Part shown: positions 27,401 through 48,268 of the stretch, piece after piece
Numbering within the stretch: the stretch's first letter is position 1
Layout: each line of letters begins with the position of its first letter
Translations under genes and position numbers: made by a program
The notes under the pieces: generated by a model
Seen by the model: the letters and a program-made list of their open reading frames with translations, nothing else
The model's database searches: none
Told to the model about the DNA's origin: nothing
Assembly: GCA_965216315.1 (NCBI GenBank)
Contig: CBDCFN010000016.1
Coordinates: forward strand, 840,733 to 904,732
From: a bacterium
Lineage (GTDB): Bacteria > UBA10199 > 2-02-FULL-50-16 > JAJFLM01
Reading direction: 5' to 3'
DNA length: 64,000 nt

Positions 27401-27456
27401 TTTCGCTCGTGATGATTCCCACGCTTTATGCGCTATTGGAGCGGATTCGGAAGTAG
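24401..27456 (+). pseudogene. AcrB/RND-family efflux permease split by a 1-nt frameshift (possibly a sequencing error)
   Basis: YPGASPEDIE, GIMVDDAIIIAEN, GVVVNDTIV, RFRAVVLTS; adding one T at ~25472-25474 restores HTAFWTAFGLPVTILG and joins the two ORFs. Confidence 0.8.
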
Positions 27457-33428: not shown

Positions 33429-34130
33429 ATGGCTCGTCGAGCAACTCAATTACGCCCTATTAAAATAAAACCCAAGCCGATCAAGACGGCCGATGGCTCC
33501 TGTGAGATTTCCTTTGGTGATACGCGGGTGATTTGCACCGCCATGTGGGAAGAGGGGGTGCCTCCTTGGAAGCAAGGGCATGGGAGTGGTTGGGTGACGG
33601 CTGAGTACGGGATGCTGCCGGGCTCCTCCCCGCAGCGGATCAAGCGCAAACATTCCAGTCGTGCGACCGAAATTCAACGTCTCATCGGACGCTCTTTGCG
33701 GGCGGTAACGGATTTGGAGGCGCTGGGTGAGAATATGATCAATGTCGATTGCGATGTTATTCAGGCGGATGGTGGCACGCGCACGGCGGCGATTACGGGC
33801 GGCTTTGTTGCGATGGTCTATGCCATGGTGAAGGCGAAGAAAAATAAGATTATTTCGGAGATTCCCGTTAAAGATTATGTTGCGGCGGTATCGGTTGGGA
33901 TTATCAATAATCGACTTTGCCTGGACTTGGATTACGAGCTCGATTCGCGTGCCGATGTGGATATGAATGTCGTGATGACCGGATCCGGCAAGCTCATTGA
34001 AGTGCAGGGAACGGCGGAAGGCGATCCATTCAGCCGGCGGGAGCTTAATGATTTGGTTACGCTGGCGGCCAAAGGAATTCGCAAACTAATGGACGGTCAG
34101 AAAAAGTTGATTGGTAAGTACATCGACTAG
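33429..34130 (+). CDS. rph: Ribonuclease PH
   Basis: GWVTAEYGMLP, EIQRLIGRSLR, CDVIQADGGTRTAAITG, EVQGTAEG. Confidence 0.96.
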   Translation: MARRATQLRPIKIKPKPIKTADGSCEISFGDTRVICTAMWEEGVPPWKQGHGSGWVTAEYGMLPGSSPQRIKRKHSSRATEIQRLIGRSLRAVTDLEALGENMINVDCDVIQADGGTRTAAITGGFVAMVYAMVKAKKNKIISEIPVKDYVAAVSVGIINNRLCLDLDYELDSRADVDMNVVMTGSGKLIEVQGTAEGDPFSRRELNDLVTLAAKGIRKLMDGQKKLIGKYID

Positions 34131-35695
34131 GCGGGTTGCATGCGGTTCCTCGCTAAATGAACTGCAAGAATGAGCATTTGAATCCCAAATATTGTCCCTA
34201 GAAAGATCGTTCCGCCCTCGCTGAACCCATAGCTGTGGAGGCCAGCGGCGAGAATGTAATTGACGCCAAACCAGGCCATCAAAATCCCTAAAAAGCTCAG
34301 CGCGACGAGCGGAATGAAACGTCGGAATGGGATCCAGCCCGAGAAGCGCCCATGGAGAATGGCGACGTACATTAAGAGGGCGATGAGTGACCAGGTTTCT
34401 TTGGGGTCCCAGCCCCAGAAGCGTCCCCAACTGTAGTCCGCCCAGATTCCTCCGAGGATGATGCCGGCGGCTAACAAGATGACACCGACTTTGAGGCAGA
34501 CATAGCAAAGGTTGCTGATGCGCCGGGTAAAAACTTGCGGTACGTCGCCAAAACTCGAGCGGATAAGATAATAGTTGGCCATGAACCAGCTCAATGCAAA
34601 GACTGCGTAGCTGATCGTAATCGTTGTAACATGCGTTGAAAGCCAAAAATTATCGCGCAGGACGGGGACGAGAGGTTTGATTTTAGGGTCGAGCATGCCA
34701 TGGGCAAAGGTCATCATAAACAGACAGCTCAAATTAAGTCCGAGCCCGACCAAGACAAAGATTTTTTCGCGGCGCCAATAGGCGAGAATTGTTGCAATCA
34801 GGAGGCCGCCGACGCCGACCCACATTACGGTTTCGTACATATTCGTGACAGGTGCACGCTGGGAGATCATGACGCGATAAACGATGGCCACTATTTCAAT
34901 GATGAACGTGATGGCGAGTCCGGTGATGACAGCCGGGTGATTGATGCGTCGGCACGCGGCTGTTACGATGAGTGTCAAGAGCGCTGCTAAGATCGCCCAA
35001 TGAAATAAGCGAAGTCGCTCATAAGTCAATTCAGTCAGATGAGCATTGTCAACTTTGGCGGCATAATCGGCACCCATCCTGAGAAGAATCGGGGTCATCT
35101 TTGCAACGCCGTTTTGGTTTTCCTTAGACAGTGCGGCAAGTTCTCGTAACGGAATCCAAATAACCTTGTCAGCACTGACCTGGGCCCCGTCATGAAAAAA
35201 AGGCGCTTTCCAGTTATTGCCGTTGATGATGTCGTGGTAGAGCCGCGTTTTTTGAATGACTGCGCCAATATCCTTAGCGAATGGTGATTTGTCTTTTTTC
35301 TCCGTCTTGAGAATAGAAAGCTGCGCTTCGAGTTCAGGGATCTTGGCGGTGATGTCAGTGTAGGTAATCTGATTGCTGTCGATCTTGAGCAAGGCTTGGG
35401 TCTTGATATGATCCACGCGGATGGGCAGCGCGGGGGCTTTCTGCTGCGCCGGATCGAGGGAGCTTAAACTAAGTCGGCAATACAACTCCATCGCCGATTG
35501 GCCCTCCCATTTTGATTTGCCGTAGATAAATTTAATGGTTTCCTTCGCATGAACCTCGAGGGGTTTAACGCGCCCGCCTGCCAGAATAGGCAGGGCCTCC
35601 AGCTCTTTGGGGCAATCTTCCGCGGCAAGTGCCGGGGTGGCACAAAAAACTACCGTGATGAAGAGGACGGTTTTAATGAGCAATTTGTGGGTCAC
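34127..35695 (-). CDS. ccsA: Cytochrome c biogenesis protein CcsA/ResC
   Basis: WWD domain WADYSWGRFWGWDPKETWS, GLHSYG; GTG start overlaps the ccsB stop. Confidence 0.93.
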   Translation of the reverse strand: MTHKLLIKTVLFITVVFCATPALAAEDCPKELEALPILAGGRVKPLEVHAKETIKFIYGKSKWEGQSAMELYCRLSLSSLDPAQQKAPALPIRVDHIKTQALLKIDSNQITYTDITAKIPELEAQLSILKTEKKDKSPFAKDIGAVIQKTRLYHDIINGNNWKAPFFHDGAQVSADKVIWIPLRELAALSKENQNGVAKMTPILLRMGADYAAKVDNAHLTELTYERLRLFHWAILAALLTLIVTAACRRINHPAVITGLAITFIIEIVAIVYRVMISQRAPVTNMYETVMWVGVGGLLIATILAYWRREKIFVLVGLGLNLSCLFMMTFAHGMLDPKIKPLVPVLRDNFWLSTHVTTITISYAVFALSWFMANYYLIRSSFGDVPQVFTRRISNLCYVCLKVGVILLAAGIILGGIWADYSWGRFWGWDPKETWSLIALLMYVAILHGRFSGWIPFRRFIPLVALSFLGILMAWFGVNYILAAGLHSYGFSEGGTIFLGTIFGIQMLILAVHLARNRMQPA

Positions 35696-37356
35696 GCTTC
35701 GCTTCTCCTTCGTTTGGCGCGAATCCTGTGATGAATAAGGATACCGCCAATCAATAATATGCAACCTAAGTATTTGATCGGTCGCCCGGGATCTCTATTG
35801 ACAGACAGCACCGAGGCATATGATTTGCCGTCGCCTAAGGCAAAATAAGAGGCTTGATACAGGGTAAAGCCCCCTTTTTTAAGGGGATTATTCATATAGA
35901 TATGGGCCTGAGTCGTTTCACTGGCGTCACTGACTTTGACGAAACTTTCGTAGCTAGCGGCATCCATCGTGCCTGGATTGGTGGCCATTTTGAATTCTTC
36001 GAGTTCAATCTGAAAGGGAAGTTGATGGACCCGGTCACCCAACATAATTTGGAAGCTGTCACCGTTTGCCGCCTCAAATGTCTTTGGGCTCTGGTTGTCG
36101 ACCCAAAAAGAGTGACTCGTCGCTTGGCTTTCACGATCCGTAATCTTGATGAGAGCAGCGCGATGTCGCTGCGCTTGGCTGCCATCCGGGGGCTCATAAG
36201 ACCACTCCAGATAAGGGAGCTTGTTGTCGATAATGCGCGTCAGTGTCATTTCCAGTCCCATCCAGGGGAGGCTGTAACCCCTGAAGAGCTCCTCGTCTTC
36301 GAATGTCCACTGGGTTCCTTTGCCATAAGCCAGCCGCTTATCTCGAAAAAATACAATGTTCGGTGATTGACGCCAGGTCTCCAACGGAACGAGATTCATG
36401 TCAGAATCTTCGTCAATGCGAATTTCTTCAGTGATGGGTTGGGCAATCATCTGCGGAAAGAAATTGTATGTTGTTCCGTCGCGCGTTATCACGACTTTTT
36501 GATAAGGTTCCTCTTGCTCGGTTTTAAATTGCAGGCCTTGCTGCTTAATTCCTTGTAATGAGATTGCCGGGAGCACGAGGCAGCGTTGGTTATCCTGGTA
36601 GAGATACTGGGCCTGAGTGTCTTTGATAGCGCGGGCAAAGCACTGACTATCAATTCTCATCAAGAGGGTGATGCTCAAAGGCCCTAACTTTTTCTTGTCA
36701 TCGCCGCGATTGTGATTGGAGACCTCAATTTTCTGCTGCATATTGGCGCCGGCGAGTTTGGCCCAGATAAGACGTTTGGCCGGCTTGCCCGCGGGGTTGT
36801 CTCGCCAGAGCTGTCGGCCGGTTGCAAACGGGATATAGCGTTCGATGGAGATGTCGTAGTTGGCAAGGTTGATGTATGGGGTGTCCCCAAGTTCAATCTC
36901 TTTTGTCGCACGTGGTAGATCTGAGGCGTAGCGCAATGATGATTGTTTGGCATTGTCAAAGTAGTGGACGTAGATTCGAGGCTCATTGATGAGGACATTG
37001 CCATTTGCCTTGCCCGGCATGAGTTCGAGCGAACCGTCGATCCCGAAGAGGGCGGTCACGGCGCTACCAATCAGTATGGTGAGAAGCCCCGCGTGAATAA
37101 TATAAAAGCCGGTCAAGCGCACTCGATAGGGGAGGCGAACGAGGGCCGCAAACAGGATATTTAAAAAGAGGAAAATTTCTGTAATGATGAAAGGCGTAGA
37201 AAGGTAGACGGCGTCCTTAGCAAATGCCGCCCCATATCGAGATTCGGTGATGGTCCCCCAGATCATCAGAACCATCAGCGACAAAATCACGCAGACCGCC
37301 AGTTTGAGCGAGGCGAGAAATTTAACGACTTCATTTTTACAGAATTTCTTCCACAT
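35692..37356 (-). CDS. resB: Cytochrome c biogenesis protein ResB/CcsB
   Basis: FLASLKLAV, GFYIIHAG, IYMNNPL...LYQASY, DPGRPIKYLG. Confidence 0.88.
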   Translation of the reverse strand: MWKKFCKNEVVKFLASLKLAVCVILSLMVLMIWGTITESRYGAAFAKDAVYLSTPFIITEIFLFLNILFAALVRLPYRVRLTGFYIIHAGLLTILIGSAVTALFGIDGSLELMPGKANGNVLINEPRIYVHYFDNAKQSSLRYASDLPRATKEIELGDTPYINLANYDISIERYIPFATGRQLWRDNPAGKPAKRLIWAKLAGANMQQKIEVSNHNRGDDKKKLGPLSITLLMRIDSQCFARAIKDTQAQYLYQDNQRCLVLPAISLQGIKQQGLQFKTEQEEPYQKVVITRDGTTYNFFPQMIAQPITEEIRIDEDSDMNLVPLETWRQSPNIVFFRDKRLAYGKGTQWTFEDEELFRGYSLPWMGLEMTLTRIIDNKLPYLEWSYEPPDGSQAQRHRAALIKITDRESQATSHSFWVDNQSPKTFEAANGDSFQIMLGDRVHQLPFQIELEEFKMATNPGTMDAASYESFVKVSDASETTQAHIYMNNPLKKGGFTLYQASYFALGDGKSYASVLSVNRDPGRPIKYLGCILLIGGILIHHRIRAKRRRSEA

Positions 37357-37525
37357 TTCTTTATTTTTCCACGGGTTCCCGATCGCGCCAATGATCTCAT
37401 TACATTGGTGCTCATGACGAATATCATATCTGTCAGAGATATCAATCATGGCTGTAAGACCCTTATTTAAGGTATATAGATGGGATCTATAGGCGCAATT
37501 TATTTAATCTTTTTGAGGAGGCATC

Positions 37526-38980
37526 ATGAAGCCGGTTAAATTTAAGAGCCCTTTTCTACTTGGTCTCGTTGCAGCGGTAGTGATTCCGCTGATGGCGGCG
37601 CATGCGGGCAGTCTCCCCACTGAACTCAGCGCCGAGAGCAAGAAATGCGCAACCTGTCACCAGCAAGAAAATGATTCCATCTACCAACAGTGGGGCGAGT
37701 CAAAGCACTATCGGGCGAATGTTGGTTGTTTTGAGTGTCACGAGGCTCAAGCGGGAGATAAGGATGCCTTTAGTCATTATGGGCAGACAATCGCGACGAT
37801 TGTTTCTCCTCAGGACTGCGCGAGTTGCCATGAAAAAGAAGTGAAGGAATTTACTGAAAGTCATCATGCTAAGGCCGGGCGGATTATGGGCTCATTGGAT
37901 AATCTCCTCGCCGAAGTCGTTGAAGGGAATACCGGTATGAAGACAGCGGCCTTTCCCCATGGGATCTCCGCGGCGGCGGTCAATGGCTGCTGGCAGTGTC
38001 ATGGTTCTGAAATCAAAGTTCTCAAGGGCGGAAAACTGGATCCTGCGACCTGGCCCAACTCGGGAATGGGGCGGATCAACCCGGATGGGTCCGAAGGTTC
38101 CTGTTCGGCCTGTCATTCACGCCACAGTTTTTCAGTCGCTCAGGCCCGCAATCCTGAAAATTGCGGTAAATGCCATATGGGCCCCGATCACCCACAACTT
38201 GAGATCTATAATGAATCAAAACACGGTATTGCCTACCAGGCGCACAAAGCCGATTTAAAGATGGATAGCGCTAAATGGGTTGTCGGCGAGGACTATAGCG
38301 CCGCCCCAACTTGCGCGACCTGTCATATGTCGGCGACCAAAAACCAGCCGGTCACTCATGATGTCGGACTCAGGTTGTCGTGGAATAATCGGCCTCCTAA
38401 GTCGGTTCGACCCGAAGTCTCCGATGCTAAACTGGGGCTCAAGACAGCGAGCATCCCGTGGACGAAACGACGTGCCAACATGAAGGACGTTTGTACTTCA
38501 TGTCACAATAAGGATTTTACGGATAATTTTTACTTTCAGTATGATGAGCTTATCAAGCTGTACAATGATAAGTTTGCAGACCCCGGGTTGAAGCTGATGG
38601 CTGCGGCCAAGCCCTTAATGAACAAGCCAAAATTTGCGAGTGACATTGATTTTATCTGGTTCGAGATCTGGCATCATGAAGGGCGCCGTGCTCGTCATGG
38701 CGCCTCGATGATGGGGCCTGACTATACGCATTGGCACGGAACCTATGAAATTGCGAAGCATTTTTATGTAAAACTGATTCCAGCGTTAGAAGAGCTTGCG
38801 AAGGATAATCTCAGTTCCAAGGATGCAACCACAGTTGCTGCCGCGAAGAAGTTGCAGGCAACGATCAGCGAGGTGCTCAACTCGGATGATCATAAGTGGT
38901 ATTTGGACAAGGAAGATCCCAAGGTCAAGGCGGCCCGCAAGAAACGTCAGACTGAATTTAAGAAGCGCTACGGGAAGTAA
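37526..38980 (+). CDS. Octaheme hydroxylamine-oxidoreductase-family cytochrome c (copy 1, Sec signal peptide)
   Basis: 8 CxxCH motifs; CGKCHMGPDH; HHEGRRARHGASMMGPDYTHWHG. Confidence 0.9.
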   Translation: MKPVKFKSPFLLGLVAAVVIPLMAAHAGSLPTELSAESKKCATCHQQENDSIYQQWGESKHYRANVGCFECHEAQAGDKDAFSHYGQTIATIVSPQDCASCHEKEVKEFTESHHAKAGRIMGSLDNLLAEVVEGNTGMKTAAFPHGISAAAVNGCWQCHGSEIKVLKGGKLDPATWPNSGMGRINPDGSEGSCSACHSRHSFSVAQARNPENCGKCHMGPDHPQLEIYNESKHGIAYQAHKADLKMDSAKWVVGEDYSAAPTCATCHMSATKNQPVTHDVGLRLSWNNRPPKSVRPEVSDAKLGLKTASIPWTKRRANMKDVCTSCHNKDFTDNFYFQYDELIKLYNDKFADPGLKLMAAAKPLMNKPKFASDIDFIWFEIWHHEGRRARHGASMMGPDYTHWHGTYEIAKHFYVKLIPALEELAKDNLSSKDATTVAAAKKLQATISEVLNSDDHKWYLDKEDPKVKAARKKRQTEFKKRYGK

Positions 38981-38996
38981 TTAAACGAGGTGATAG

Positions 38997-40481
38997 ATGA
39001 GATTAGTAATGATATCGGGAGCTGTTTTACTGCTCATCCCGTTCATGTTGGCCTGTTCCGGTGAAGCCGGTTCGCATGGTTTTTCCTCTTCCAAGTATGC
39101 GGTCAATACGTCGACCTTGCCGGCAGAACTGACTGACGAATCGCAAGCCTGCATTTCCTGCCATATGAAGGAAAACCCAAGCATCTACCAGCAATGGGGT
39201 GGTTCCAAGCACTACCGTGCCAATGTCGGCTGTTATGAGTGTCATCGCGCCAATAGCTCGGATCCTGATGCCTTTGATCATTATGGGATGAGTATCTCCA
39301 TTCTCGTGTCTCCTCAGGATTGTGCGCAATGTCATGCCAAGGAAGTCAAAGAATTTACATCGAGTCATCACGCCAAAGCGGGCCGCATTATGGGCTCACT
39401 CGACAACCTTCTCGCTGAAGTCGTTGAAGGGAATAATAAAATGGTGACGGAGGGGTTCCCGGACGGGATCTCGGCAGCTGCGGTTAACGGCTGTTGGCAG
39501 TGTCACGGGTCTGAGATCAAGGTGCTCAAGAATGGCAAATTGGATCCGGCGACCTGGCCGAATTCCGGTATGGGGCGGATTAACCCGGATGGCTCGGAAG
39601 GATCTTGTTCCGCTTGTCACTCACGGCATGAATTTTCCGTTGCACAGGCGCGCGGCCCTGAGAATTGCGGTAAGTGTCATATGGGTCCGGATCATCCGCA
39701 GATAGAGGCCTTTAATGAGTCAAAACACGGCATCGCTTTTTATGCCCACCGCGATAAGATGAACTTAGATAATCCGAAATGGATTGTCGGCCAAGATTAT
39801 ACTGCGGCACCGACTTGTGCGACCTGTCATATGTCGGCGACCAAAGATCTGCCGGTGACCCATGATGTCGGACTTCGCATCTCTTGGAACAATCGACCGC
39901 CAAAATCAGTTCGACCTGAGTTGTCGGACGCCAAGCTGGGGCTTCCAACCGCCAAGGTAAAATGGACAGAGCGTCGTGATAATATGAAGAAAGTTTGTGT
40001 ATCCTGCCACAATCAACAATTCACTGATAATTTTTATGTTCAATACGATGCCTTGATCGATCTTTATAATACTAAGTTTGCGGATCCGGGTCTCAAGTTG
40101 ATGAAGGCGGCCAAGCCGCTGCTTAAGCCCGTCAAATTCAGTAATGAGTTAGACTTTATCTGGTTTGAATTATGGCATCATGAAGGGCGGCGAGCCCGTC
40201 ATGGTGCTTCAATGATGGCGCCCGATATTACGCACTGGCACGGGACCTACGAGATCGCGAAACATTTCTATGAGAAGTTTATTCCTAAGCTGCAGAAGTT
40301 GGCTAAGAAGAATCTCGATAATAAAGATGCCGGCAAGGCAAAGGCCGCCAAAGAACTCAAAGAACTCATTGTCACGGTACTCAACTCAGATGATCATAAA
40401 TGGTTTATTGGGCAGGAGAGTCCGGAGGCAAAGAGAAAAAGAGAGCAGCGGCGAGAAGAATTTAAGAAACGGTATAAGTAG
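38997..40481 (+). CDS. Octaheme HAO-family cytochrome c (copy 2, probable lipoprotein)
   Basis: 8 CxxCH motifs, highly similar to copy 1; MLAC lipobox. Confidence 0.9.
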   Translation: MRLVMISGAVLLLIPFMLACSGEAGSHGFSSSKYAVNTSTLPAELTDESQACISCHMKENPSIYQQWGGSKHYRANVGCYECHRANSSDPDAFDHYGMSISILVSPQDCAQCHAKEVKEFTSSHHAKAGRIMGSLDNLLAEVVEGNNKMVTEGFPDGISAAAVNGCWQCHGSEIKVLKNGKLDPATWPNSGMGRINPDGSEGSCSACHSRHEFSVAQARGPENCGKCHMGPDHPQIEAFNESKHGIAFYAHRDKMNLDNPKWIVGQDYTAAPTCATCHMSATKDLPVTHDVGLRISWNNRPPKSVRPELSDAKLGLPTAKVKWTERRDNMKKVCVSCHNQQFTDNFYVQYDALIDLYNTKFADPGLKLMKAAKPLLKPVKFSNELDFIWFELWHHEGRRARHGASMMAPDITHWHGTYEIAKHFYEKFIPKLQKLAKKNLDNKDAGKAKAAKELKELIVTVLNSDDHKWFIGQESPEAKRKREQRREEFKKRYK

Positions 40482-40486
40482 ATCTT

Positions 40487-41011
40487 ATGTTTAGACTACG
40501 TGTTGCTACGGTATTTTTTGTAGGATTTGTGCTGGCAGGTTTGTTGCTATTAATTTCATCTCAAACGCGCGCGATCGAGCTGGATCCTAATGTTGAGATT
40601 GATGTAAGGGGGATGCGTCTGGAGATGTTCCCTTGTTCTAAATGTCATAATCTAATCGGAAAAAGTGAAGGGCGTAAAGAAGCGGCGCATCGCAATGTCC
40701 ATGTCCGTCACGGGGAGATCAATAAAAATTGTCTCAATTGTCACAATGGCGATAATATGGATACCTTGCATTTACTGAATTCAAAGAATGCCCTGCCATT
40801 CGAGAAGTCTTATCAAATTTGTGGGCAGTGCCATGGCAATATCTTGAATGAGTGGAATCTTGGAATTCATGGTCAGCAGACGGGGAGTTGGAACGGCAAA
40901 AAACTGCGGCAAACCTGCTCGGCATGCCACAATCCGCACCAACCAAAATTTAAGGACATGAAGCCTCTTCCGGCGCCGCAACATCCGCATGAGAGGAGGG
41001 CAAGACGTTGA
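40487..41011 (+). CDS. Tetraheme cytochrome c
   Basis: CSKCH, CLNCH, CGQCH, CSACH; N-terminal signal/anchor. Confidence 0.88.
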   Translation: MFRLRVATVFFVGFVLAGLLLLISSQTRAIELDPNVEIDVRGMRLEMFPCSKCHNLIGKSEGRKEAAHRNVHVRHGEINKNCLNCHNGDNMDTLHLLNSKNALPFEKSYQICGQCHGNILNEWNLGIHGQQTGSWNGKKLRQTCSACHNPHQPKFKDMKPLPAPQHPHERRARR

Positions 41012-41952
41012 TACAGTGGACTCGAACCGATAAACGCGTGAGCGCCAAACTTAAGAAGCAGCTGCGGTCGCGAGTCAGTCGTCGCAATGTTCTCAAAGGA
41101 TTATTTCTGGGAGCGGCGGCCGCGATGGTGACACCGGCAAAGACGGCCAAAGCTTTTTCTTGGGGCGAATTTTTTCAGCGTCATTATAAAGAGCTAAGCC
41201 CGGAAGATAAGAAGAAGGTATTTGCGCGCATCGAAACGGAAACAAAAGAGCGCTATGGTGTCAATGTAGAGATCACTGATCCGCCTGCTATGGATGGTGT
41301 CGAGTTTGTTTATTGTCTTAATCTGTCCAAGTGTAATGGCAATAGAAAGTGCGTTGAGGCCTGCGTCAAAGAGAATAATCAATCGCGCGACCCGCAGATC
41401 CAATATATCAAGGTCCTTGAGATGCCGAAGGGTTCCATGAACTTAGAAGCAGGGGACCAATACTATGAACATGATAAGGTTCCTCAGCAGGACAAGTATT
41501 ATCTGCCGGTTCAGTGCCAGCAATGTCGTAATCCTCCCTGCACGAAGGTGTGCCCGGTTGAAGCGACCTGGCAGGAAAAAGACGGAATTGTGGTTATTGA
41601 TTATAACTGGTGCATTGGTTGTCGTTATTGTGAGGCGGCCTGTCCCTATGAGGCGCGACGCTTTAATTTTACGACGCCGACAATTGCGCCATCGGAGATC
41701 AATCCTAAGCAAGGCTATCTATCGAATCGCGTCCGCCCCAAAGGGGTCGTGGAGAAATGTACGTTTTGCTTGCAAAGAACCCGGAAGGGCCAGTATCCGG
41801 CCTGTTTGGAGGCGTGTCCCACGGGTGCGCGCAAGTTCGGTAATATCCTCGATCCCAAGAGTGAGGTGAGGGCGATCCTCGAGAACAAGCGCGTCTTTGT
41901 CTTGAAAGAAGACTTGGGAACGATGCCGCGCTTTTATTACTTTTTTGATTAG
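41008..41952 (+). CDS. NrfC/DmsB-like 4Fe-4S protein with Tat signal
   Basis: SRRNVLK Tat motif; CQQCRNPPCTKVCP, CIGCRYCEAACP, KCTFC...PACLEACP. Confidence 0.92.
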   Translation: MIQWTRTDKRVSAKLKKQLRSRVSRRNVLKGLFLGAAAAMVTPAKTAKAFSWGEFFQRHYKELSPEDKKKVFARIETETKERYGVNVEITDPPAMDGVEFVYCLNLSKCNGNRKCVEACVKENNQSRDPQIQYIKVLEMPKGSMNLEAGDQYYEHDKVPQQDKYYLPVQCQQCRNPPCTKVCPVEATWQEKDGIVVIDYNWCIGCRYCEAACPYEARRFNFTTPTIAPSEINPKQGYLSNRVRPKGVVEKCTFCLQRTRKGQYPACLEACPTGARKFGNILDPKSEVRAILENKRVFVLKEDLGTMPRFYYFFD

Positions 41953-41960
41953 GAAGAGCT

Positions 41961-43184
41961 GTGATTAAATATTTACACTTTTGTAAAGCGATGACCCTTG
42001 AGGTCCTGAGAGGATCAAAGCGCTACTATGCATGGATGGGATTTCTCGCGGTGATCATCCTTATCGGGGTCGTGGGCTATATTCATCAGTTAAATGAGGG
42101 GCTTATTGTCACGAATATGACGGACCAGGTGTCATGGGGCGCCTATATTGCGAATTTTACCTATATCGTCGGGCTTGCTGCAGCCTCGGTCATGCTAGTA
42201 ATCCCGGCCTATTTTTATAAAATTAAAGAACTGATCCATATCACTTTTGTCGGTAAGTTGTTTGCGGTGGCTTCGATCATTATGTGCCTCTTGTTTGTTG
42301 TCGTTGATATGGGGCGCCCGGATCGTTTTTGGCACATTATGCCCTTTGTCGGCCGCATGAATTTTCCATATTCTATCCTTGCCTGGGACGTCATTGTATT
42401 GTCGGGTTATCTGTTGCTCAATCTGCATATTCCCGGGTATCTTTTATATAAGAAATATATTGGTCACCCCCCAACCGACAATTACTATAAACCCTTTGTT
42501 TATATTGCCGTCTTCTGGGCAATCAGCATTCACACCGTGACCGCCTTCTTATACGCCGGCCTGGGCGGACGGCCTTTTTGGAATTCTGCAATTGTGGCGC
42601 CCCGTTTTATTGCATCTGCCTTTGCGGTCGGGCCGTGTTTTCTGCTGATCGCGTTGCAGTTTATCAGACGATACACCCATCTTAAGGTGGAGAATTACAT
42701 CTACACCGTGCTTAAACGGATTATTGCGGTTGCGATGATTATCAATCTCTTTTTGCTTGGTTCGGAGGTCTTTAAGGAGTTTTATACGCAGTCGGCCCAT
42801 ACCGCAGCGGCGAAATATCTCTTTTTTGGGTTGCATGGGCACAACATGCTGGTTCCCTACATCTGGATTGCGGTGGTTTTTAATGTCATCGCGACAATCA
42901 TTTTTGCCAGTCGCAAACTGAGCCGCAAAATGAGACTCGTCAATGTCGCTTGCATTATGGCGATTGTGGGCATCTGGATTGAAAAGGGGATGGGTTTATT
43001 GGTTCCGGGCTTCATTCCCTCTCCGTTGGGCGATATTGTTGAGTACACCCCATCAATAACGGAGATTTCGGTGTGTGCCGGGATTTGGGCACTGGGGTTC
43101 TTCCTCTTTACGCTCTTCCTTAAGGCAGCGATCCCTATAGAAACGGGTGAGCTGCGGCTACATAAAAAAACGGCAACCCGGTGA
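41961..43184 (+). CDS. NrfD/PsrC-family membrane quinol dehydrogenase subunit
   Basis: VSWGAYIANFTY, DMGRPDRFWH, SIHTVTAF, PRFIASAF; polytopic. Confidence 0.92.
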   Translation: MIKYLHFCKAMTLEVLRGSKRYYAWMGFLAVIILIGVVGYIHQLNEGLIVTNMTDQVSWGAYIANFTYIVGLAAASVMLVIPAYFYKIKELIHITFVGKLFAVASIIMCLLFVVVDMGRPDRFWHIMPFVGRMNFPYSILAWDVIVLSGYLLLNLHIPGYLLYKKYIGHPPTDNYYKPFVYIAVFWAISIHTVTAFLYAGLGGRPFWNSAIVAPRFIASAFAVGPCFLLIALQFIRRYTHLKVENYIYTVLKRIIAVAMIINLFLLGSEVFKEFYTQSAHTAAAKYLFFGLHGHNMLVPYIWIAVVFNVIATIIFASRKLSRKMRLVNVACIMAIVGIWIEKGMGLLVPGFIPSPLGDIVEYTPSITEISVCAGIWALGFFLFTLFLKAAIPIETGELRLHKKTATR

Positions 43185-43200
43185 AGGGTTGCCGTTTTTT
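43165..43200. terminator. Bidirectional intrinsic terminator
   Basis: AAAAAACGGCAACCC-N6-GGGTTGCCGTTTTTT between convergent genes. Confidence 0.85.
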
Positions 43201-43220
43201 ATCTCTACGTTAAAGCGCGC

Positions 43221-44528
43221 TTAGAAGGAGAGGTTCGTCTGTAGGTAACCCCACAGCGGAACTTTCGAGCCCACGTTGGATTTGATAAATCCAGCGGGGA
43301 TGAAGGCGCCAGCCCCGAATTGAAAGGCCAAGATATCGAGCGGTTTATAACGAAGCGTAAGATCCGCTTCGACGCCCGCAAAACGCGAGCCCGAAGGCCC
43401 TGCGGCACCGATCGGAGTCACGCCGTTGAGCCGGAAGAGTCCCGCTGACGTCTTGGTCCGCATCATCATGTGCGTATCCAACTTGACCAGCCATTTTTCG
43501 CCTGGTTTCGCTGAAAGGTGGAGAACACCGCCCATGATGTTCCGGCGCCCGAAAAGGTCGATAAAGCCGAGCCATTTGTGGGCCGTCGGAAAGAGTTGGT
43601 TGTAATTGAGTGAGGTGACAAAGAACTCCAGGCCGACCCGGAAGTTGTACCAGTCTTCCCAGGTGTATCCGCCCTCGACATCAAATTGCCAGTCGCGTTG
43701 ATTGGCTCCAGCCAGTTTGCCGAACTGCCCGGTTCCTTCAAAACGATAGTCCCAGTTGTTGGGTTTCGATTTGATGCGGAGCCCCCCGGTCACGTAGTTG
43801 TGGGGTCGAGGCGATGCCGTCTGATCGAGGCGATATAAGGCATACAGATCTAAGGCTTGAAAGAAGCGTCCCAAATCCAACGATGAATAGACACCGCCGA
43901 AATGGGCGTCTCCGAAGGAGCCGGTTGCGACACCGCGGCCAAACCCTGCTTCGACGTCATTGAGCAAGGACCAAAATAAGTCGACCCAGCCACTGTCGTG
44001 TTTGAAGTTTAGTTTGAGGGCATCAAAACTGCGGCCGACGTTGCTCCAGCCGACGTTGCCGATGACAAGATGATCCCCATAGATGAGTTCTTGTCGTCCT
44101 AGTTTGAAAGTGAACCAGTCAGAGGGGCTATAAGCGAGCCAACCCTGGTGGACACCGAGTGCCGGATCGTTGAGGACCGTCCCGCTCGTTGCCGCCGCGC
44201 CGGTCGCATTGGCGGCCGAATTGACTGTCGACAAGCTTGCAGTTGTCTCTCCCCAGCCGGCGGTGAATTGAGGCTGAAAGAAGAGGACAATTTGCTCATG
44301 GGGGATGAAAGTAATGTCCGGGCGAATTCTCGTTAGAACAAAATCTCGGCGATCGGATGCCGAGGTAAAATCCGTATTTTGGAAATGTTCGTAACGGAAG
44401 CGTGCTTGCCCGCCGAACTTAAGTTTACCGTCAAGTAGCTCAAATTTCTCAGCCTGTGCGGTCGCCGGAAAGATAAAACCGACCGAGCACAGTGCGACGA
44501 GGAAGAGCTTCCAATAGTGCTGTTTCAT
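43221..44528 (-). CDS. Outer-membrane beta-barrel, alginate-export family
   Basis: Signal peptide, RFRYE, GRQELIYGD..VIGNVGWSNVGRSFD, LFPTAHKWLG, terminal Phe; AGGAGG RBS. Confidence 0.85.
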   Translation of the reverse strand: MKQHYWKLFLVALCSVGFIFPATAQAEKFELLDGKLKFGGQARFRYEHFQNTDFTSASDRRDFVLTRIRPDITFIPHEQIVLFFQPQFTAGWGETTASLSTVNSAANATGAAATSGTVLNDPALGVHQGWLAYSPSDWFTFKLGRQELIYGDHLVIGNVGWSNVGRSFDALKLNFKHDSGWVDLFWSLLNDVEAGFGRGVATGSFGDAHFGGVYSSLDLGRFFQALDLYALYRLDQTASPRPHNYVTGGLRIKSKPNNWDYRFEGTGQFGKLAGANQRDWQFDVEGGYTWEDWYNFRVGLEFFVTSLNYNQLFPTAHKWLGFIDLFGRRNIMGGVLHLSAKPGEKWLVKLDTHMMMRTKTSAGLFRLNGVTPIGAAGPSGSRFAGVEADLTLRYKPLDILAFQFGAGAFIPAGFIKSNVGSKVPLWGYLQTNLSF

Positions 44529-44628: not shown

Positions 44629-46371
44629 TCATAGGATTTTGCGTTTGAGGACGCGGCCAATGAGGCGGGCGCGATCACGCCAGGGAAACCGGAGGAAATT
44701 CGTCTTGATGACGCCACGTGAGAAATAAGTCGGTGCGGAGTAGTCGATACGTACATTCACCAGGACGGGTTTTCCCTGTTGACTGAGCCGTCTTGCGGCG
44801 GCGAGCCGATCAGCGATATCGCCGTCCGTTTCAATTTCGAGGTATTCGAGATGGAGTGCGGCACTGAAGGCCTTGAAATCGAGGCTGGGTAGACTGGTAC
44901 AGGTCTCGCGATTCAGCGAAGCTTTTTGAAATTGGGCGATTTGCGATAATTTCCCATCATTGAGAACGCAGATGACGGGGCCGATTCCATAGGTGGCGGC
45001 GGTCAGCAGCTCAAGTCCCGTCATCAAGAAGGCGCCATCACCGGCGAGGGCGACGACGGGGCGATCGGGGCTGGCTAATTTTGCACCGATGGCGGCGGGC
45101 ACACTGTAACCCATGCAGGAATAATCCGTTGGGGCCAGAAACGAGCGTGCTCGGGTTAAACGAAGCAGCTCCATGGCGAGAAATGTGCCGTTACCACTGT
45201 CAGCGACATAGAGACTCTCGGGGCCAAATTCTTTGTCCAGAGCGTCGAGTAATTTGACTGGAGACACGCGCCGATTGTGGCTGGTTGCCCCTGCTTGTTC
45301 GTTTTTAACCGCTTCATGGGCTGCGCGTAAGGTCTTTAATCGGTTTTCGTTGCGTGGTTTGGCTTTAAGTTCCGTAGTGGTGAGTAGGGACGATAATGCT
45401 TCCGTGGCTTCACTCGTCCATGTGACTTCGGCCGGATAGTTCTTGTTAAAGACCTCCGGGTTGATGTCGATATGAAGCAGTCGTGATGGTGGTTTGAAAC
45501 CGTAGCTGGCGGTCGCTACCTCGCCAAAGCGACAACCAATAGCCAAGAGGCAATCAAAATTTTTCTCGAGCTGGCGGATTGGCGTTGGAGCGGCGGCTCC
45601 CATCGTATTCCAGGCCCAGCGTGGATGATCCTCGGGAAAAACACCTTTGGCGGAGATGGTCGTAAAAACGATCGCGTCAAGGCGGTCCGCCAGTTCGATG
45701 AGTTGAACGCGAGCCTGCTGGGTTCCGATGCCGGCATAGATAGCGATAGATTGAGATTCGTTAAGAGCCTGAACGATGGCATGAAGGTTGTGTTCGGAAG
45801 GGCTTGTTTTATAGGTTTCGATTGTTGAATCTTCATCATATTGTAACGCTTGTTCGTCAATGCCACCGATAAATAGGTAGAGATTGGCTGGGATTTCTAT
45901 CATGACGGGTCCTGCTGGCGCCAAGCGCGCGAGTGTGCAGGCTTCGCGAATCAGCCGATATAATTCCTGATGGGTATGGGCTTTAAAGACTTTTTTGCAA
46001 ACCGGTGTAGCGATAGCGCATTGGTCAACGTCATGAAGTTGAAAGGCTGCACCTGTATCTTCACGAAGGCCACAGGAGAGCACGAGCATGGGGGTTTGAT
46101 CGAGAAAGGCCTCGGCGATGCCGGAGAGGGCATGCGTGAGGCCGGCTCCCGGTACCAAGTTGAGGGCGGCCAGTTCCCCTGACGCGCGAGCGACGCCGTC
46201 GGCCATAAAGGAGGCGCATTGTTCATCGGTGACGAGTATGGGTTGGAGCCGGTCCGATTCGATCATCGCATCATAAAGTTCGATGTTGTGAGTTCCCGGA
46301 ATTCCAAAGGTGAAGCGAACTCCTGCGTCTTCCAAGGAGCGACAGACGATTCGGGCGCCGCTCATTTTCAT
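44629..46371 (-). CDS. Thiamine-pyrophosphate-dependent enzyme (acetolactate synthase-like)
   Basis: FGIPGTHN, MGYSVPAAIGA, GDGAFLM...LND. Confidence 0.9.
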   Translation of the reverse strand: MKMSGARIVCRSLEDAGVRFTFGIPGTHNIELYDAMIESDRLQPILVTDEQCASFMADGVARASGELAALNLVPGAGLTHALSGIAEAFLDQTPMLVLSCGLREDTGAAFQLHDVDQCAIATPVCKKVFKAHTHQELYRLIREACTLARLAPAGPVMIEIPANLYLFIGGIDEQALQYDEDSTIETYKTSPSEHNLHAIVQALNESQSIAIYAGIGTQQARVQLIELADRLDAIVFTTISAKGVFPEDHPRWAWNTMGAAAPTPIRQLEKNFDCLLAIGCRFGEVATASYGFKPPSRLLHIDINPEVFNKNYPAEVTWTSEATEALSSLLTTTELKAKPRNENRLKTLRAAHEAVKNEQAGATSHNRRVSPVKLLDALDKEFGPESLYVADSGNGTFLAMELLRLTRARSFLAPTDYSCMGYSVPAAIGAKLASPDRPVVALAGDGAFLMTGLELLTAATYGIGPVICVLNDGKLSQIAQFQKASLNRETCTSLPSLDFKAFSAALHLEYLEIETDGDIADRLAAARRLSQQGKPVLVNVRIDYSAPTYFSRGVIKTNFLRFPWRDRARLIGRVLKRKIL

Positions 46372-47873
46372 GTACAGCCTCCAAGGTCGCGACGGATTCC
46401 TTCGGCGACACGATCAGCCAACGCCATGACAGTCAGGTAGGGATTGACTTCGGCAGCGGCAGGAAAGAGGCTGGCATCCGCCACGTAGATATCGTTATGG
46501 CCGTGGAGCTTCCCCCAGGGATTGGTGACGGAGCTTTGTTTGTCTTCGCCCATGCGACATCCCCCCATGAGATGGCCAGCAGAAATGGAAGCTTGCCCCA
46601 ATTTGAATAGCTTGCTTTGAATGAGCTTGTCCACCTCATTGGCCTGGGTGGAGCGAATAAAGAATGGATCCATCGCCGGGGTGTGGACCTCTTCGGCTCC
46701 CGCAGCAAACAAGATCCGGGCTCCGGCGCGGCAGCCTTGTGTGAGGGCCTCAATGGTTTTTTTGCTGAAGCGGTAGTTTACCTGGGGATTGCCGTTTTGA
46801 TCAAAACCGATGTGGTTATGTTCCTCGGCTTCATCAATCGCGAGCAAGAGGATCATTTGGAGGCTGTCAAAGTGGTCCGTATATTCGTCGAGTTCATGAC
46901 CATAGGCGGCAACGCTTTTGGCGAAGGTGAAAGGGAAGTACATGCAAGTTTCCAACAAGAAGCGGTTTGAGTCGACAAAGTCATCGCAATAATAGCTCTT
47001 GGGGTGGCCGGCCGTGTTTTTGATCGCACGCGGGTGGCGTCCAGCCAGCATAAGAGCCGGGTGACAAGTGAAGAAATGTCCCAGCGCCGGAGATAAGTCG
47101 GAGCCATAAGAGCGGTGCAGTATAGCGGGTGAATGAATGGCTCCCGCTGCAACGACAATTTTATGGGCGTGAATGCGATAAGCGCCGGGGGCTAACGGAG
47201 AGGCATCGAGTCCGTGTTCGGGCGGAACGACTTCGGCGATGACGTCGTGATCGTCGATTTTGCGAACGCGGCAGAAGGGAATGACCTCAACGCCTAGCTC
47301 TTCCGCGCGGGGAATCTGGACAACGGCTGTTCCCTGTTTCGCGTGGACGGCACACCCAAGATTGCAAGTTCCGAGTCCCTGACAGTCTCTGACATTAACC
47401 GGGAACTGTTGGGCGTTCCACTTGAGCTGTTCACAGCCTTTAACAAAGAGACGATTATTGTCGTTGATTTCATCCGGCGGAAGTAAATGTACGTTGTTTT
47501 CTTCACGGTATTTTTGAGTCCGTGGTTCCATGTCCGCGTTGTCAACGCCGGGGATGTTCCATTTTCGAAGCACGGTGTCGGGGATGCCGAGACTTGTTCC
47601 CGTGTAGACAGTGGTTGAGCCGCCGACGGCATGTGCAAGTGCCATTGTCATGTCCTGGCTCGTCGTTGGATAGGCACCCTTGTGAAAATAATACTTTTCG
47701 GCCATTTCTAATTCACGACGTGTATTGTCTTGAGGGCGAAATCGTCCTCCCCATTCGAGCAAGGCGATTCGGGTTCCCTGCTGACACAAAGGAGCGAGTT
47801 CCTTGGCGACAGTCCCGCCACCGGCTCCGGAGCCGATGATCACAATGTCGTATTGAAGGCTTTGTTCAGTCAT
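46368..47873 (-). CDS. GMC-family FAD oxidoreductase
   Basis: GSGAGG, CQGLGTCNLGC, HLMGGCRMG, VADASLFP...VNPYLT. Confidence 0.9.
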   Translation of the reverse strand: MTEQSLQYDIVIIGSGAGGGTVAKELAPLCQQGTRIALLEWGGRFRPQDNTRRELEMAEKYYFHKGAYPTTSQDMTMALAHAVGGSTTVYTGTSLGIPDTVLRKWNIPGVDNADMEPRTQKYREENNVHLLPPDEINDNNRLFVKGCEQLKWNAQQFPVNVRDCQGLGTCNLGCAVHAKQGTAVVQIPRAEELGVEVIPFCRVRKIDDHDVIAEVVPPEHGLDASPLAPGAYRIHAHKIVVAAGAIHSPAILHRSYGSDLSPALGHFFTCHPALMLAGRHPRAIKNTAGHPKSYYCDDFVDSNRFLLETCMYFPFTFAKSVAAYGHELDEYTDHFDSLQMILLLAIDEAEEHNHIGFDQNGNPQVNYRFSKKTIEALTQGCRAGARILFAAGAEEVHTPAMDPFFIRSTQANEVDKLIQSKLFKLGQASISAGHLMGGCRMGEDKQSSVTNPWGKLHGHNDIYVADASLFPAAAEVNPYLTVMALADRVAEGIRRDLGGCT

Positions 47874-48268
47874 TTTATGGGAGGGATAAGATAATGAAGG
47901 TCCGCATAGACCGAACTCTGGCCATAAACCCCTAGCTTGGCGAGAGTGCTGAGCCCCCAGAACCCCTTGCGCATCAGACCGATTGGCGAATTGTAAAATT
48001 GATGGAGCAGGGCCTCCTGTCGTGCGGGATTAAGACCCTTAAAGAGGTGGCCGGTCATGCATAATGACCAGATATCGACAATAGTGAAAAAAAGGCTTAG
48101 TTTTTTCAGTTGTTGTGGTGGCTGTGAACGGAGAATGCGGTTGATGAGCTCAAGTGATTGTTTTCGCTGAGCGGCGGTAAAGTGCCGAGCTCGCGGAACG
48201 AGGCAGGCCTGCAGTGCTTCAAAACGTCGGGCGCGCTTTCCCTGTAAAAAGGGAGGTTTTGTTGCCAC
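47870..48268 (-). CDS. Small GMC-partner protein (gluconate-2-dehydrogenase subunit-3-like)
   Basis: Overlaps the GMC start; resembles the N-terminal domain of the GMC at 53066. Confidence 0.6.
   Translation of the reverse strand: MATKPPFLQGKRARRFEALQACLVPRARHFTAAQRKQSLELINRILRSQPPQQLKKLSLFFTIVDIWSLCMTGHLFKGLNPARQEALLHQFYNSPIGLMRKGFWGLSTLAKLGVYGQSSVYADLHYLIPPIK

Follow-up and report, generated by a model that had tools for sequence, protein, structure and literature searches.

Members of one branch of the HAO family, found in Beggiatoa and in cable bacteria, have been proposed or reported to reduce nitrite to ammonium. For cable bacteria, a preprint describes the cytochrome pMHC, reported there as 57% identical to BOGUAY_0691 and encoded directly after nap genes. 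In incubations that reduced nitrate, its gene ranked within the top 100 of the transcripts, and 15N measurements showed more DNRA where cable bacteria were present in the sediment than where they were not. In the same preprint epsilon-Hao appears as sister to the pMHC group, and the authors could not name the link of pMHC to the quinone pool. A paper on Thermosulfurimonas described a four-gene locus next to nap, coding for a HaoA-homologous multiheme cytochrome, a 4Fe-4S protein, an NrfD-family protein and a membrane cytochrome c, and hypothesised nitrite reduction by these proteins in two ammonifiers that lack NrfA. Here, we analysed a window of 64,000 nucleotides from the bacterial contig CBDCFN010000016.1, in which two such octaheme genes share an operon with genes for a putative quinone-linked module. 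On comparative grounds we consider it probable that this operon encodes a membrane-attached quinol:nitrite oxidoreductase, which would reduce periplasmic nitrite to ammonium in place of the NrfA that was not found. Neither the enzyme family nor the type of operon is new in itself; the new element is the retained pair of paralogues, one soluble and one lipoprotein-like.

The operon consists of five genes on the + strand, hao1 (37526-38980), hao2 (38997-40481), a tetraheme cytochrome gene (40487-41011), an NrfC-like gene (41008-41952) and an NrfD-like gene (41961-43184), with intergenic gaps of 16, 5, -4 and 8 nt and a GAGGAGG ribosome-binding site ahead of hao1. It is closed by an intrinsic terminator (43170-43200) with a 10-bp stem (ACGGCAACCC/GGGTTGCCGT), a 6-nt loop, a T6 tail and an A7 run upstream, which is probably bidirectional and common to the operon and a convergent porin gene. 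A preliminary description of this DNA had given the positions and order of these and the flanking genes correctly; the strong terminator that it had noticed at the operon end was located as this stem-loop with its T-run, and profile searches of the operon genes bore out its statement that a molybdopterin subunit and NrfA are missing from them. Upstream of the operon, a pair of ResB/CcsA genes runs divergently on the minus strand. The divergent promoter region contains an FNR/CRP-like box, ATGACGAATATCAT (37414-37427), that shares 12 of 14 bases with a palindromic box lying upstream of nar. Chance alone would give about 0.75 matches of this quality in regions as large as the two compared; the similarity is therefore not significant and the box is a candidate and a weak lead only.

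Downstream, the convergent gene on the minus strand (43221-44528) encodes an outer-membrane porin of the Alginate_exp family (PF13372, 96.7 bits), whose tie to the operon is uncertain. The proximity of a multiheme-rich operon to an outer-membrane beta-barrel could mean that the cytochromes deliver electrons to a different acceptor in the periplasm or outside the cell, for example metals, with the porin on the route. A related porin indeed occurs near hao in 5 of 80 related loci, but it is absent from the other 75 and convergent here, and the octahemes keep an invariant Asp-His pair of the substrate-converting HAO pocket (see below). An Alginate_exp-type barrel is not of the kind known to house cytochromes, and we give this route hardly any credence.

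Hao1 (484 aa) and Hao2 (494 aa) are 75% identical, carry eight CxxCH motifs each and match PF13447 with 84.7 and 92.1 bits (cut-off 21.9). Hao1 has a Sec signal peptide, is predicted to be soluble and periplasmic, and shows a Tyr at position 400. Hao2 has Ile at this position and resembles a lipoprotein in its Cys after the signal h-region and its Ser/Gly-rich linker, traits common to Hao2 and the two proteins with which it groups (P0007 and P0009; SH-aLRT 98). All eight CxxCH motifs are invariant in 28 family members, Hao1 and Hao2 included. Among solved structures, IhOCC (4qo5) matches best (E 2.7e-49, and 1.1e-64 with the family profile), with far lower scores for HAOr (6h5l; E 1.6e-21) and for the oxidative enzymes HAO, HOX and HDH (1e-13 to 1e-16). 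The HAO fold has long C-terminal oligomerisation helices. An AlphaFold2 model of low confidence (mean pLDDT 65) places long helices at residues 329-364, 373-394 and 401-428, and Foldseek listed 4qo5, HAO and HAOr first for it, with TM values of at most 0.28. Hao1 is also 59-64% identical to its counterparts in the cable-bacteria loci L034, L047, L071 and L074. By these comparisons, Hao1 and Hao2 fall within a tightly conserved branch of the HAO family, that of IhOCC, orange Beggiatoa and the cable-bacteria "pMHC". Of the relatives with a structure or a published study, IhOCC and probably the BOGUAY_0691/pMHC group stand nearest to them, and not epsilon-Hao. The probable placement of BOGUAY_0691 in the Hao1/Hao2 family follows the preprint and a homologue from Thiomargarita, whose genome has two full-length candidates.

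Does the active site of these octahemes point to oxidation or to reduction? The Asp-His pair after heme 6 (CHMGPDH), which the preliminary description had seen retained, is invariant in the 28 members (D221-H222) and aligns with D267-H268 of Nitrosomonas HAO. The string cited there for Nitrosomonas HAO is correct and contains Tyr467, and the by-eye register, with Met395 on the His and Trp403 on the Tyr, was reproduced by a profile-profile alignment (hhalign; probability 100%, E 4.5e-43) and by MAFFT L-INS-i. If the alignment is anchored on the downstream Gly instead, the register moves by one residue and His402 enters the Tyr467 column; on either register, Hao1 and Hao2 lack the Tyr467-type cross-link tyrosine of the P460 enzymes (HAO/HOX/HDH). 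Among 200 members examined, the motif was found in 192, and every one of these has Trp in the cross-link column, as does the Tyr-less HAOr orthologue; position 400 varies among the 192 (Y 135, I 44, W 12, F 1). Tyr400 of Hao1 lies three residues before the aligned cross-link column (two on the shifted register), in a part of the predicted model that is too poor to rule out a register shift. As judged from the aligned family, no Tyr is conserved where the cross-link would form.

The missing tyrosine argues against an oxidative role, in which hydroxylamine or hydrazine would be the substrate that the octahemes oxidise, and the electrons would flow via the tetraheme cytochrome and the NrfCD-type module to quinones. 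The layout of octaheme, tetraheme and quinone-reactive module does resemble the HAO-c554-cM552 chain of nitrifiers. Moreover, NrfCD modules of the Qrc type are reported to be capable of quinone reduction, and the native Beggiatoa enzyme was reported to oxidise hydroxylamine and hydrazine, an observation that also counts against nitrite reduction as the best reading. However, the cross-link-deficient HAOs tested so far are reductases. AMO was not detected in this genome by a search run without a positive control, and the only hydrazine-synthase-like match there is a generic beta-propeller far below the cut-off. We therefore regard an oxidative role as highly improbable.

The remaining three gene products are candidates for a path between quinones and octahemes. 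The c7/c3-type tetraheme cytochrome has an N-terminal anchor, matches Pfam Paired_CXXCH_1 and Cytochrome_C7 and is predicted to act as an electron relay; its four CxxCH motifs and His68, 75, 128 and 151 are invariant in 28 orthologues, and a search for solved homologues gave none of significance. The NrfC-like protein is a periplasmic iron-sulfur protein with a twin-arginine signal, whose R25-R26 and cluster cysteines are invariant in 24 orthologues. It fits the DsrO model best (179.9 bits, cut-off 200) and reaches 105.6 bits with the NrfC model TIGR03149 (cut-off 377.6). The NrfD-like protein, an integral membrane subunit of the quinone-interacting NrfD/DsrP type (PF03916, 140.5 bits), shows about 10 hydrophobic, transmembrane segments in a hydropathy scan and passes the cut-off of the DsrP model (412.5 against 350 bits); its solved relatives are the ActC subunits of alternative complex III.

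The best-scoring models for the membrane module, DsrO and DsrP, come from sulfur metabolism, and this counts against a role in nitrite reduction. By analogy with the octahemes MccA and OTR and with DsrOP, the module might instead reduce a sulfur compound (sulfite, thiosulfate, tetrathionate or polysulfide). The partners of MccA are of the NrfC/NrfD type, and sulfite is a further substrate of multiheme nitrite reductases. A sulfur role was likewise kept as an alternative for the four-gene locus in the Thermosulfurimonas paper. Yet no dsrAB turned up in the genome, where the only NIR_SIR protein is a NirA-type ORF of 703 aa, and no MccA or OTR chain appeared among the solved relatives of the octahemes at E up to 1. 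Elsewhere, in other lineages, hao has nap, narXL and Moco genes as its neighbours instead of sulfur genes, and a sulfur substrate thus seems very unlikely.

Is the linkage of hao to such a module a common arrangement? Among the 80 related loci, the complete c4-nrfC-nrfD set lies beside hao in 34, which come from many phyla and show two gene orders (17 each). In four further loci a contig end truncates the set, so that only part of it is seen; 12 lack it entirely although each flank covers at least 3.5 kb, and 30 have flanks too short for a decision. In module-less loci hao follows napAGHB, as in the cable-bacteria locus L074, or lies beside napGA and a Crp/Fnr gene (L034), narL and narX/Q (L057) or Moco genes (L017, L023). 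The 33 other genomes with the full module include two with NrfA, one with NirS and one with NirK, and 18 with Nar or a Nap-like enzyme (14 if only matches above curated cut-offs are counted). The 15 of 33 without Nar or Nap, a count that does not factor in MAG completeness and has no baseline frequency beside it, weigh against the nitrite reading.

The host genome, which is 98.3% complete, encodes NarGHJI and two NarK about 41 kb from the operon; together with Moco genes and an Fnr-type regulator they lie within 34-60 kb downstream of it. A look through the genome for nrfA and nar, as the preliminary description had proposed, thus turned up NarGHJI, while NrfA was not found: PF02335 had no match in this genome, and the control search was positive in E. 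coli and Bacteroides. Nor did we find NirK, true NirS, NOR, NosZ or Hcp in it. Because 17 of 19 NarG-bearing genomes of the host's phylum lack NrfA and 18 of 19 lack a Hao of the operon's type, stopping at nitrite is common in this phylum and a missing NrfA has no diagnostic value. This frequent lack counts against the nitrite reading.

The octahemes might also reduce nitrite to NO only, or mainly detoxify NO or hydroxylamine from nitrate respiration, instead of acting as an ammonifying reductase that yields energy. Kuenenia HAOr (Kustc0458), a demonstrated reductase that is Tyr-less and has the same CHMGPDH and Trp in the cross-link column, turns nitrite into NO in vitro. It is the nearest Tyr-less HAO with biochemical data, and that its product is NO instead of ammonium speaks against the ammonium reading as well. 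The host is otherwise aerobic, with two A-type enzymes as its only oxidases and an alternative complex III. However, NO or its products would meet none of the enzymes NOR, NosZ and Hcp, as searched for in the genome, and the octahemes are much nearer to IhOCC/pMHC than to HAOr. Two catalytic copies with a private quinol module look like high-flux respiration, and the studied branch members are tied to ammonium production. Formation of NO alone, or detoxification, is in our view rather unlikely.

The preliminary description had called the operon a self-contained island with its own cytochrome c synthase. The two divergent genes on the minus strand, for a ResB/CcsB-type protein (35692-37449; PF05140, 72.1 bits; true start probably at the second Met, about 37356, as the sequence suggests) and a CcsA/ResC-type protein of 545 aa with a long N-terminal extension (34127-35764; PF01578, 96.8 bits; TIGR03144, 143.8 bits, under the cut-off of 187.6), are adjacent and overlapping and encode the membrane proteins of a System II synthase. 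A second ResB copy was not picked up in this genome by tblastn (E 1e-4), and the one other PF01578 gene encodes 264 aa and adjoins hemA; the pair looks like the only cytochrome c synthase of the genome. The word dedicated does not suit the sole ResB and the sole synthase-type CcsA found, which adjoin hao in 1 of 80 loci. Likewise, base composition is flat across the locus, and the locus would depend on the Nar and NarK genes 41 kb away, which leaves little of a self-contained island.

What stood of the earlier proposal is its core, an NrfA-independent module for reductive conversion of nitrite and hydroxylamine that is fed from the quinone pool. It is the best-supported reading, given the missing tyrosine, the branch of the octahemes, their linkage to c4-NrfC-NrfD, the presence of Nar and the failure to find NrfA, NirS, NirK and NOR in the genome; the support for reduction is comparative throughout. 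In quinol-linked nitrite reduction of this kind, NarGHI would make nitrite and NarK would export it to the octahemes. The NrfD/DsrP-type subunit would oxidise quinol, the Tat-exported four-cluster NrfC/DsrO-type protein would take the electrons next, and the anchored bis-His tetraheme cytochrome would relay them to Hao1, which is soluble, and Hao2, which is probably lipid-anchored. There, heme 4, which would be five-coordinate and free of a tyrosine cross-link, may work reductively and take nitrite via bound NO and hydroxylamine to ammonium. The proteins may also form a physical complex, and the path may conserve energy.

How does this arrangement compare with known systems? DsrMKJOP shares with it an NrfD-like subunit of about 10 segments that passes the DsrP cut-off and an iron-sulfur subunit near the DsrO cut-off, but the operon contains neither DsrM, DsrK nor DsrJ. 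The place of DsrJ, a triheme protein, is taken here by the tetraheme cytochrome. MccA has a special CX15CH motif, whereas all eight motifs of the octahemes are plain CxxCH, which sets them apart from MccA and OTR. Epsilon-Hao is paired with a NapC/NrfH-type tetraheme cytochrome and not with an NrfCD-type module. Likened by description only, these Tyr-less relatives of HAO reduce nitrite and hydroxylamine in vitro. The Thermosulfurimonas locus, with a single octaheme, is also likened by its description alone, neither genome being among the 80 loci. HAOr is more distant and has a diheme cytochrome as partner. IhOCC of Ignicoccus hospitalis, the closest solved protein by sequence and by fold ranking, has no P460 cross-link and a Met in the Met395 column; it differs in its identity of about 26%, in Asp-Val for Asp-His and Phe for Trp403, and in being archaeal. 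The E. coli NrfABCD system follows the same logic of an NrfD-family subunit, a Tat-exported four-cluster protein, a multiheme relay and a periplasmic multiheme nitrite reductase. Here, however, an HAO-type octaheme takes the catalytic place of NrfA, a pentaheme protein with CxxCK, a tetraheme relay replaces the pentaheme NrfB, and the iron-sulfur and membrane subunits, far under the NrfC cut-off, fit DsrO/DsrP better. Finally, pMHC of cable bacteria and BOGUAY_0691 of Ca. Maribeggiatoa are, like the octahemes described here, periplasmic proteins with eight CxxCH motifs that are tied to nitrate reductase genes. Their organisms have a single hao without c4-NrfC-NrfD, whereas here the quinone link lies within the operon and the enzyme is duplicated.

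The gene order put forward in the preliminary description was borne out by an ORF listing and family scans. On the plus strand of the window, hao1 (37526-38980, 484 aa), hao2 (38997-40481, 494 aa), a tetraheme cytochrome gene, here c4 (40487-41011, 174 aa), and the genes of an NrfC-like protein (41008-41952, 314 aa) and an NrfD-like protein (41961-43184, 407 aa) follow one another with intergenic gaps of 16, 5, -4 and 8 nt. The ribosome-binding site of hao1 reads GAGGAGG, and the operon ends at a hairpin with a 10-bp stem, preceded by A7 and followed by T6, whose loop contains the nrfD stop codon. Upstream, on the opposite strand and 76 nt from the hao1 start when its longest reading frame is taken, lies a ResB-type gene (35692-37449, PF05140), followed by a CcsA-type gene (34127-35764, minus strand, PF01578). 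Downstream, a porin gene (43221-44528, minus strand, PF13372, Alginate_exp) converges on the hairpin. Its product could offer an outer-membrane route for the substrate; a PF13372 porin lies near hao in 5 of the best 80 of 577 related loci, in differing gene orders. The preliminary description had called the locus an island; by composition it is not one, because housekeeping genes flank it and G+C stays near 0.50 throughout.

Elsewhere in the window, an AcrB-type RND pump is spread over two neighbouring ORFs (24401-25507 and 25525-27456, matching positions 1-353 and 379-1020 of the PF00873 profile), which may reflect a frameshift, a stop codon or a sequencing error. A tight minus-strand cluster right after the porin gene (44629-48268) encodes a TPP-dependent enzyme, a GMC oxidoreductase and a 132-aa ORF; a second GMC oxidoreductase gene is found 5 kb past this cluster (53066-54895) and a DUF4423/TIGR02147-type regulator gene at 59605-60459.

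Is the adjoining ccsBA pair dedicated to the octahemes, as had been supposed? We found only two PF01578 genes in the genome, and the second, of 264 aa, lies directly upstream of hemA (contig positions 1182594-1184667), which we take to be the position of HemX-type proteins and which suggests a HemX-like role rather than one in cytochrome c synthesis. Since tblastn found no second ResB in the genome and the other PF01578 gene stands by hemA, the pair beside hao is most likely the general cytochrome c synthase of the cell. The adjacency of ccsBA and hao recurs in only one of the best 80 loci of 577, in a Halobacteriovoraceae MAG, and we reject the dedicated role.

Which octaheme enzymes do hao1 and hao2 encode? 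The closest solved structure to Hao1 is IhOCC of Ignicoccus (4qo5, E 2.7e-49), followed by the Tyr-less HAOr of Kuenenia (6h5l, E 1.6e-21) and then by oxidative HAO, HOX and HDH (E 1e-13 to 1e-16), and this rank order was unchanged with the family profile. The family is large and tight: a word-indexed search returned at least 8000 candidates, the 120 matches listed are 58-100% identical to Hao1, and clustering at 50% gave 276 representatives at E 1e-30 and 1830 at E 1e-3. In species-representative genomes, a relative is encoded on 577 stretches. The best 80 of them, 59-70% identical, belong to Bdellovibrionota, Myxococcota, Hydrogenedentota, Omnitrophota, Planctomycetota (anammox MAGs among them), Gammaproteobacteria (Thiomargarita) and the cable bacteria Electrothrix and Electronema.

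In the preliminary description, a by-eye alignment to Nitrosomonas HAO had put Met at the His ligand position and Trp at the cross-linking Tyr. Against this HAO, HMMER alignments made with Hao1 or with the family profile end near HAO residue 374-398, short of Tyr467, the P460 cross-link residue, and we therefore mapped the position via the HAO paralogues of a Brocadiaceae MAG, among which the HAOr orthologue was identified. One of these paralogues aligns with HAO residues 41 to 498, which confirmed both the HAO string used for the by-eye alignment and the position of Tyr467. Comparing the alignment of eight paralogues with a 28-member family profile, hhalign (probability 100%, E 4.5e-43) aligned Met395 of Hao1 with the His conserved in the 'AH' motif, and Trp403 with the cross-link Tyr. 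MAFFT L-INS-i on the pooled set gave the same register, with Trp in the cross-link column of both Tyr-less paralogues, so that the by-eye register was reproduced twice. When the alignment is anchored on the downstream Gly instead, the register moves by one and the cross-link column falls on His402; under either register, Tyr is absent from the cross-link position. The motif was found in 192 of 200 family sequences (the 120 database proteins listed and 80 ORFs of the best 80 loci), and all 192 have Met at position 395 and Trp at position 403, with position 400 occupied by Tyr (135), Ile (44), Trp (12) or Phe (1). The Asp-His pair, D221-H222, does not vary in the family and lines up with D267-H268 of HAO, whereas IhOCC has Asp-Val at this site. 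An AlphaFold2 model from a 28-row alignment was unusable for mapping at residue level, given a mean pLDDT of 65, values below 50 over residues 393-403 and Foldseek TM scores of at most 0.28.

Hao1 and Hao2 are 75% identical to each other and fall in one 7-row clade (support 91) of a quick IQ-TREE tree of 62 rows, for which only SH-aLRT support was calculated. Within this clade, Hao2 groups with the database proteins P0007 and P0009 (support 98), while Hao1 stands outside that group with P0002-P0004. P0002 and P0009 are each encoded on a contig 8517 nt long, and the two contigs are presumably identical; in that case the duplication predates the split from that relative and was then kept. Inspected by eye, the two groups differ in their signal regions and at position 400. 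In all three proteins of the Hao2 group, Hao2 included, the signal h-region is directly followed by a Cys and then by a linker rich in Ser, Gly and Asp, and position 400 is Ile; in all four proteins of the Hao1 group the signal ends in an Ala-x-Ala type sequence, this Cys is lacking, and position 400 is Tyr. We read the paralogues as one soluble and one lipid-anchored isoform, as predicted from these signal regions. Such a retained pair of soluble and lipoprotein-like paralogues is rare and is what the window newly brings; a tandem hao pair occurs in none of the best 80 loci of 577.

The proteins encoded with the octahemes suggest how electrons might reach them. Besides its four CxxCH motifs, the tetraheme cytochrome has another four invariant His, which would fit four predicted bis-His hemes, and an N-terminal hydrophobic segment that in several orthologues ends in a lipobox-like Cys; it was grouped among c7/c3-type clusters, and the search for a solved homologue gave no significant match. 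In the NrfC-like protein, the twin-arginine motif and the cluster cysteines are all invariant. Its top model is DsrO (179.9 bits, cut-off 200), and the NrfD-like protein, with about ten hydrophobic segments, scores 412.5 bits against the DsrP model, above the cut-off of 350. We ruled out a Dsr system because we detected no dsrAB in the genome; the solved relatives of the NrfD-like protein are ActC subunits. At one locus (L058:9410-10822, in a single MAG), one 470-aa ORF covers both the tetraheme cytochrome and the NrfC-like protein, which could mean either that the two are naturally fused or that a stop codon was missed.

How often does this module of c4, nrfC and nrfD accompany hao? Among the best 80 loci of 577, it adjoins hao in 34, with hao first in 17 and last in 17; four loci that break off where a contig ends hold a partial module, 12 lack it entirely although at least 3.5 kb of flank is available on each side, and in 30 its presence cannot be judged. 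Carriers of the module include Myxococcota and Bdellovibrionota. The surroundings at module-less loci include napA-napG-napH-napB-hao in Electronema, napG, napA and a Crp/Fnr gene beside hao in Electrothrix, narL and narX/Q beside a gammaproteobacterial hao, and Moco genes near hao at two loci. A Brocadiaceae anammox MAG carries a family member beside c4-nrfC-nrfD as well as some nine HAO paralogues of the canonical kind.

The preliminary description had called for a check of the genome for nrfA and nar. In this genome, 98.3% complete, we found NarGHJI and no NrfA. NarG (contig positions 919652-923224, 1538 bits against a cut-off of 1084) is encoded about 41 kb from hao1 alongside NarH, NarJ and NarI; genes for two NarK, for Moco biosynthesis, for alternative complex III and for an Fnr-type regulator accompany them. 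This stretch (contig positions 912610-938504, about 8 to 34 kb past the window end) holds narGHJI, both narK, the alternative complex III cluster, the regulator gene, moaE, moeA, moaCB, moaA, mobA and a c-type cytochrome gene, and, together with the hao operon, makes up a loosely assembled respiratory region spanning about 60 kb. Searches of the same genome found no NirK, Hcp or NosZ, no true NirS (the sole match is a beta-propeller repeat protein) and no NOR (the only two COX1 matches are both CtaD-type); AMO likewise gave no match, a weak result given that the search found none in any control genome either. A NirA-type protein of 703 aa could serve cytoplasmic nitrite reduction for assimilation.

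FNR/CRP-like boxes lie upstream of hao (window 37414-37427, ATGACGAATATCAT) and of the nar operon (contig position 918702, ATGATTAATATCAT). They agree at 12 of 14 bases, a match of which about 0.75 would be expected by chance for the region sizes, with the box pattern taken from the two sites themselves; TGAT-N4-ATCA cores number 112 genome-wide against about 41 expected. We discounted a common box as evidence linking the two promoters, the pairwise match not being significant alone.

Does a missing NrfA imply a need for Hao? In the 93 species of the host's own GTDB phylum, NarG is present in 19 and NrfA in seven, and only two of the 19 NarG carriers have NrfA. Nitrate reduction ending at nitrite is thus common in this phylum, and with 17 of 19 NarG-bearing genomes lacking NrfA, its absence is not diagnostic, which weakens that argument. 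No close Hao was found elsewhere in these 93 genomes, the only other Hao-like gene being distant (41% identity, G085:C160:5481-6635), and this points to acquisition of hao from outside the phylum. Across 33 other genomes with the full module (counting once a MAG that contributed two loci), from many phyla, 29 showed none of NrfA, NirS and NirK, in a set whose completeness is not established, whose related genomes are not independent and which has no baseline frequency for comparison; NrfA was seen in two (one a fragment), NirS in one and NirK in one. NarG occurs in 12 of the 33 and a NapA-like protein in 12 (four above cut-off), so that Nar or a Nap-like enzyme is present in 18, or in 14 by cut-offs alone.

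The observation in the preliminary description was sound, and its inference of nitrite/hydroxylamine reduction stands as the best available reading, shorn of the dedicated ccsBA and of the island. On the strength of sequence comparison, the octahemes would carry out an NrfA-independent reduction of nitrite to ammonium. We speculate that the DsrP/ActC-like ten-helix membrane subunit would make the nitrite step proton-motive, and that the soluble and lipid-anchored octahemes may divide the work, e.g. with one acting on free and the other on membrane-proximal substrate, or one on nitrite and the other on NO/hydroxylamine. Taken by itself, the window contributes modestly: a further carrier, from a phylum of small genomes otherwise without a close copy, with a clear genome context in which Nar and NarK are present and our searches turned up no other dissimilatory nitrite reductase. 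If the operon type represents a widespread ammonifying route, genomes now classed as nitrate reducers that lack a nitrite reductase would be cryptic DNRA organisms. DNRA surveys as a rule tally nrfA, at times also onr; carriers of an operon that makes ammonium from nitrite would retain nitrogen in sediments and soils uncounted.

The octaheme family is already known, and the operon type has a precedent in the literature: Slobodkina 2017 reports a four-gene locus, alike by description only, beside nap in two NrfA-less ammonifiers, for which nitrite reduction was proposed with a sulfur role as the alternative. Our literature search, with most subscription journals outside its scope, found no experimental study of a hao-c4-nrfCD operon; PMC10732223 treats an NrfD cluster of another kind and PMC11896075 a Psr-type NrfD, and neither bears on the operon. 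In the cable-bacteria preprint, the octaheme is named pMHC, its group is sister to epsilon-Hao, it shares 57% identity with BOGUAY_0691 of orange Ca. Maribeggiatoa, and it is tied to DNRA by 15N data, by a site directly downstream of nap and by high expression. Schutte 2018 shows DNRA by orange Beggiatoa without canonical genes and points to the octaheme. A link of the Hao1 family to BOGUAY_0691 is probable, not proven, because the Thiomargarita genome has two full-length PF13447 genes. Should the operon make ammonium from nitrite, it would supply the quinone link that the cable-bacteria authors could not name for the same family. We tentatively propose, with rather less than even confidence, that Hao-c4-NrfC-NrfD constitutes a third route of respiratory nitrite ammonification beside NrfA and ONR, phylogenetically widespread, proton-motive and, in this lineage, built on two enzymes.
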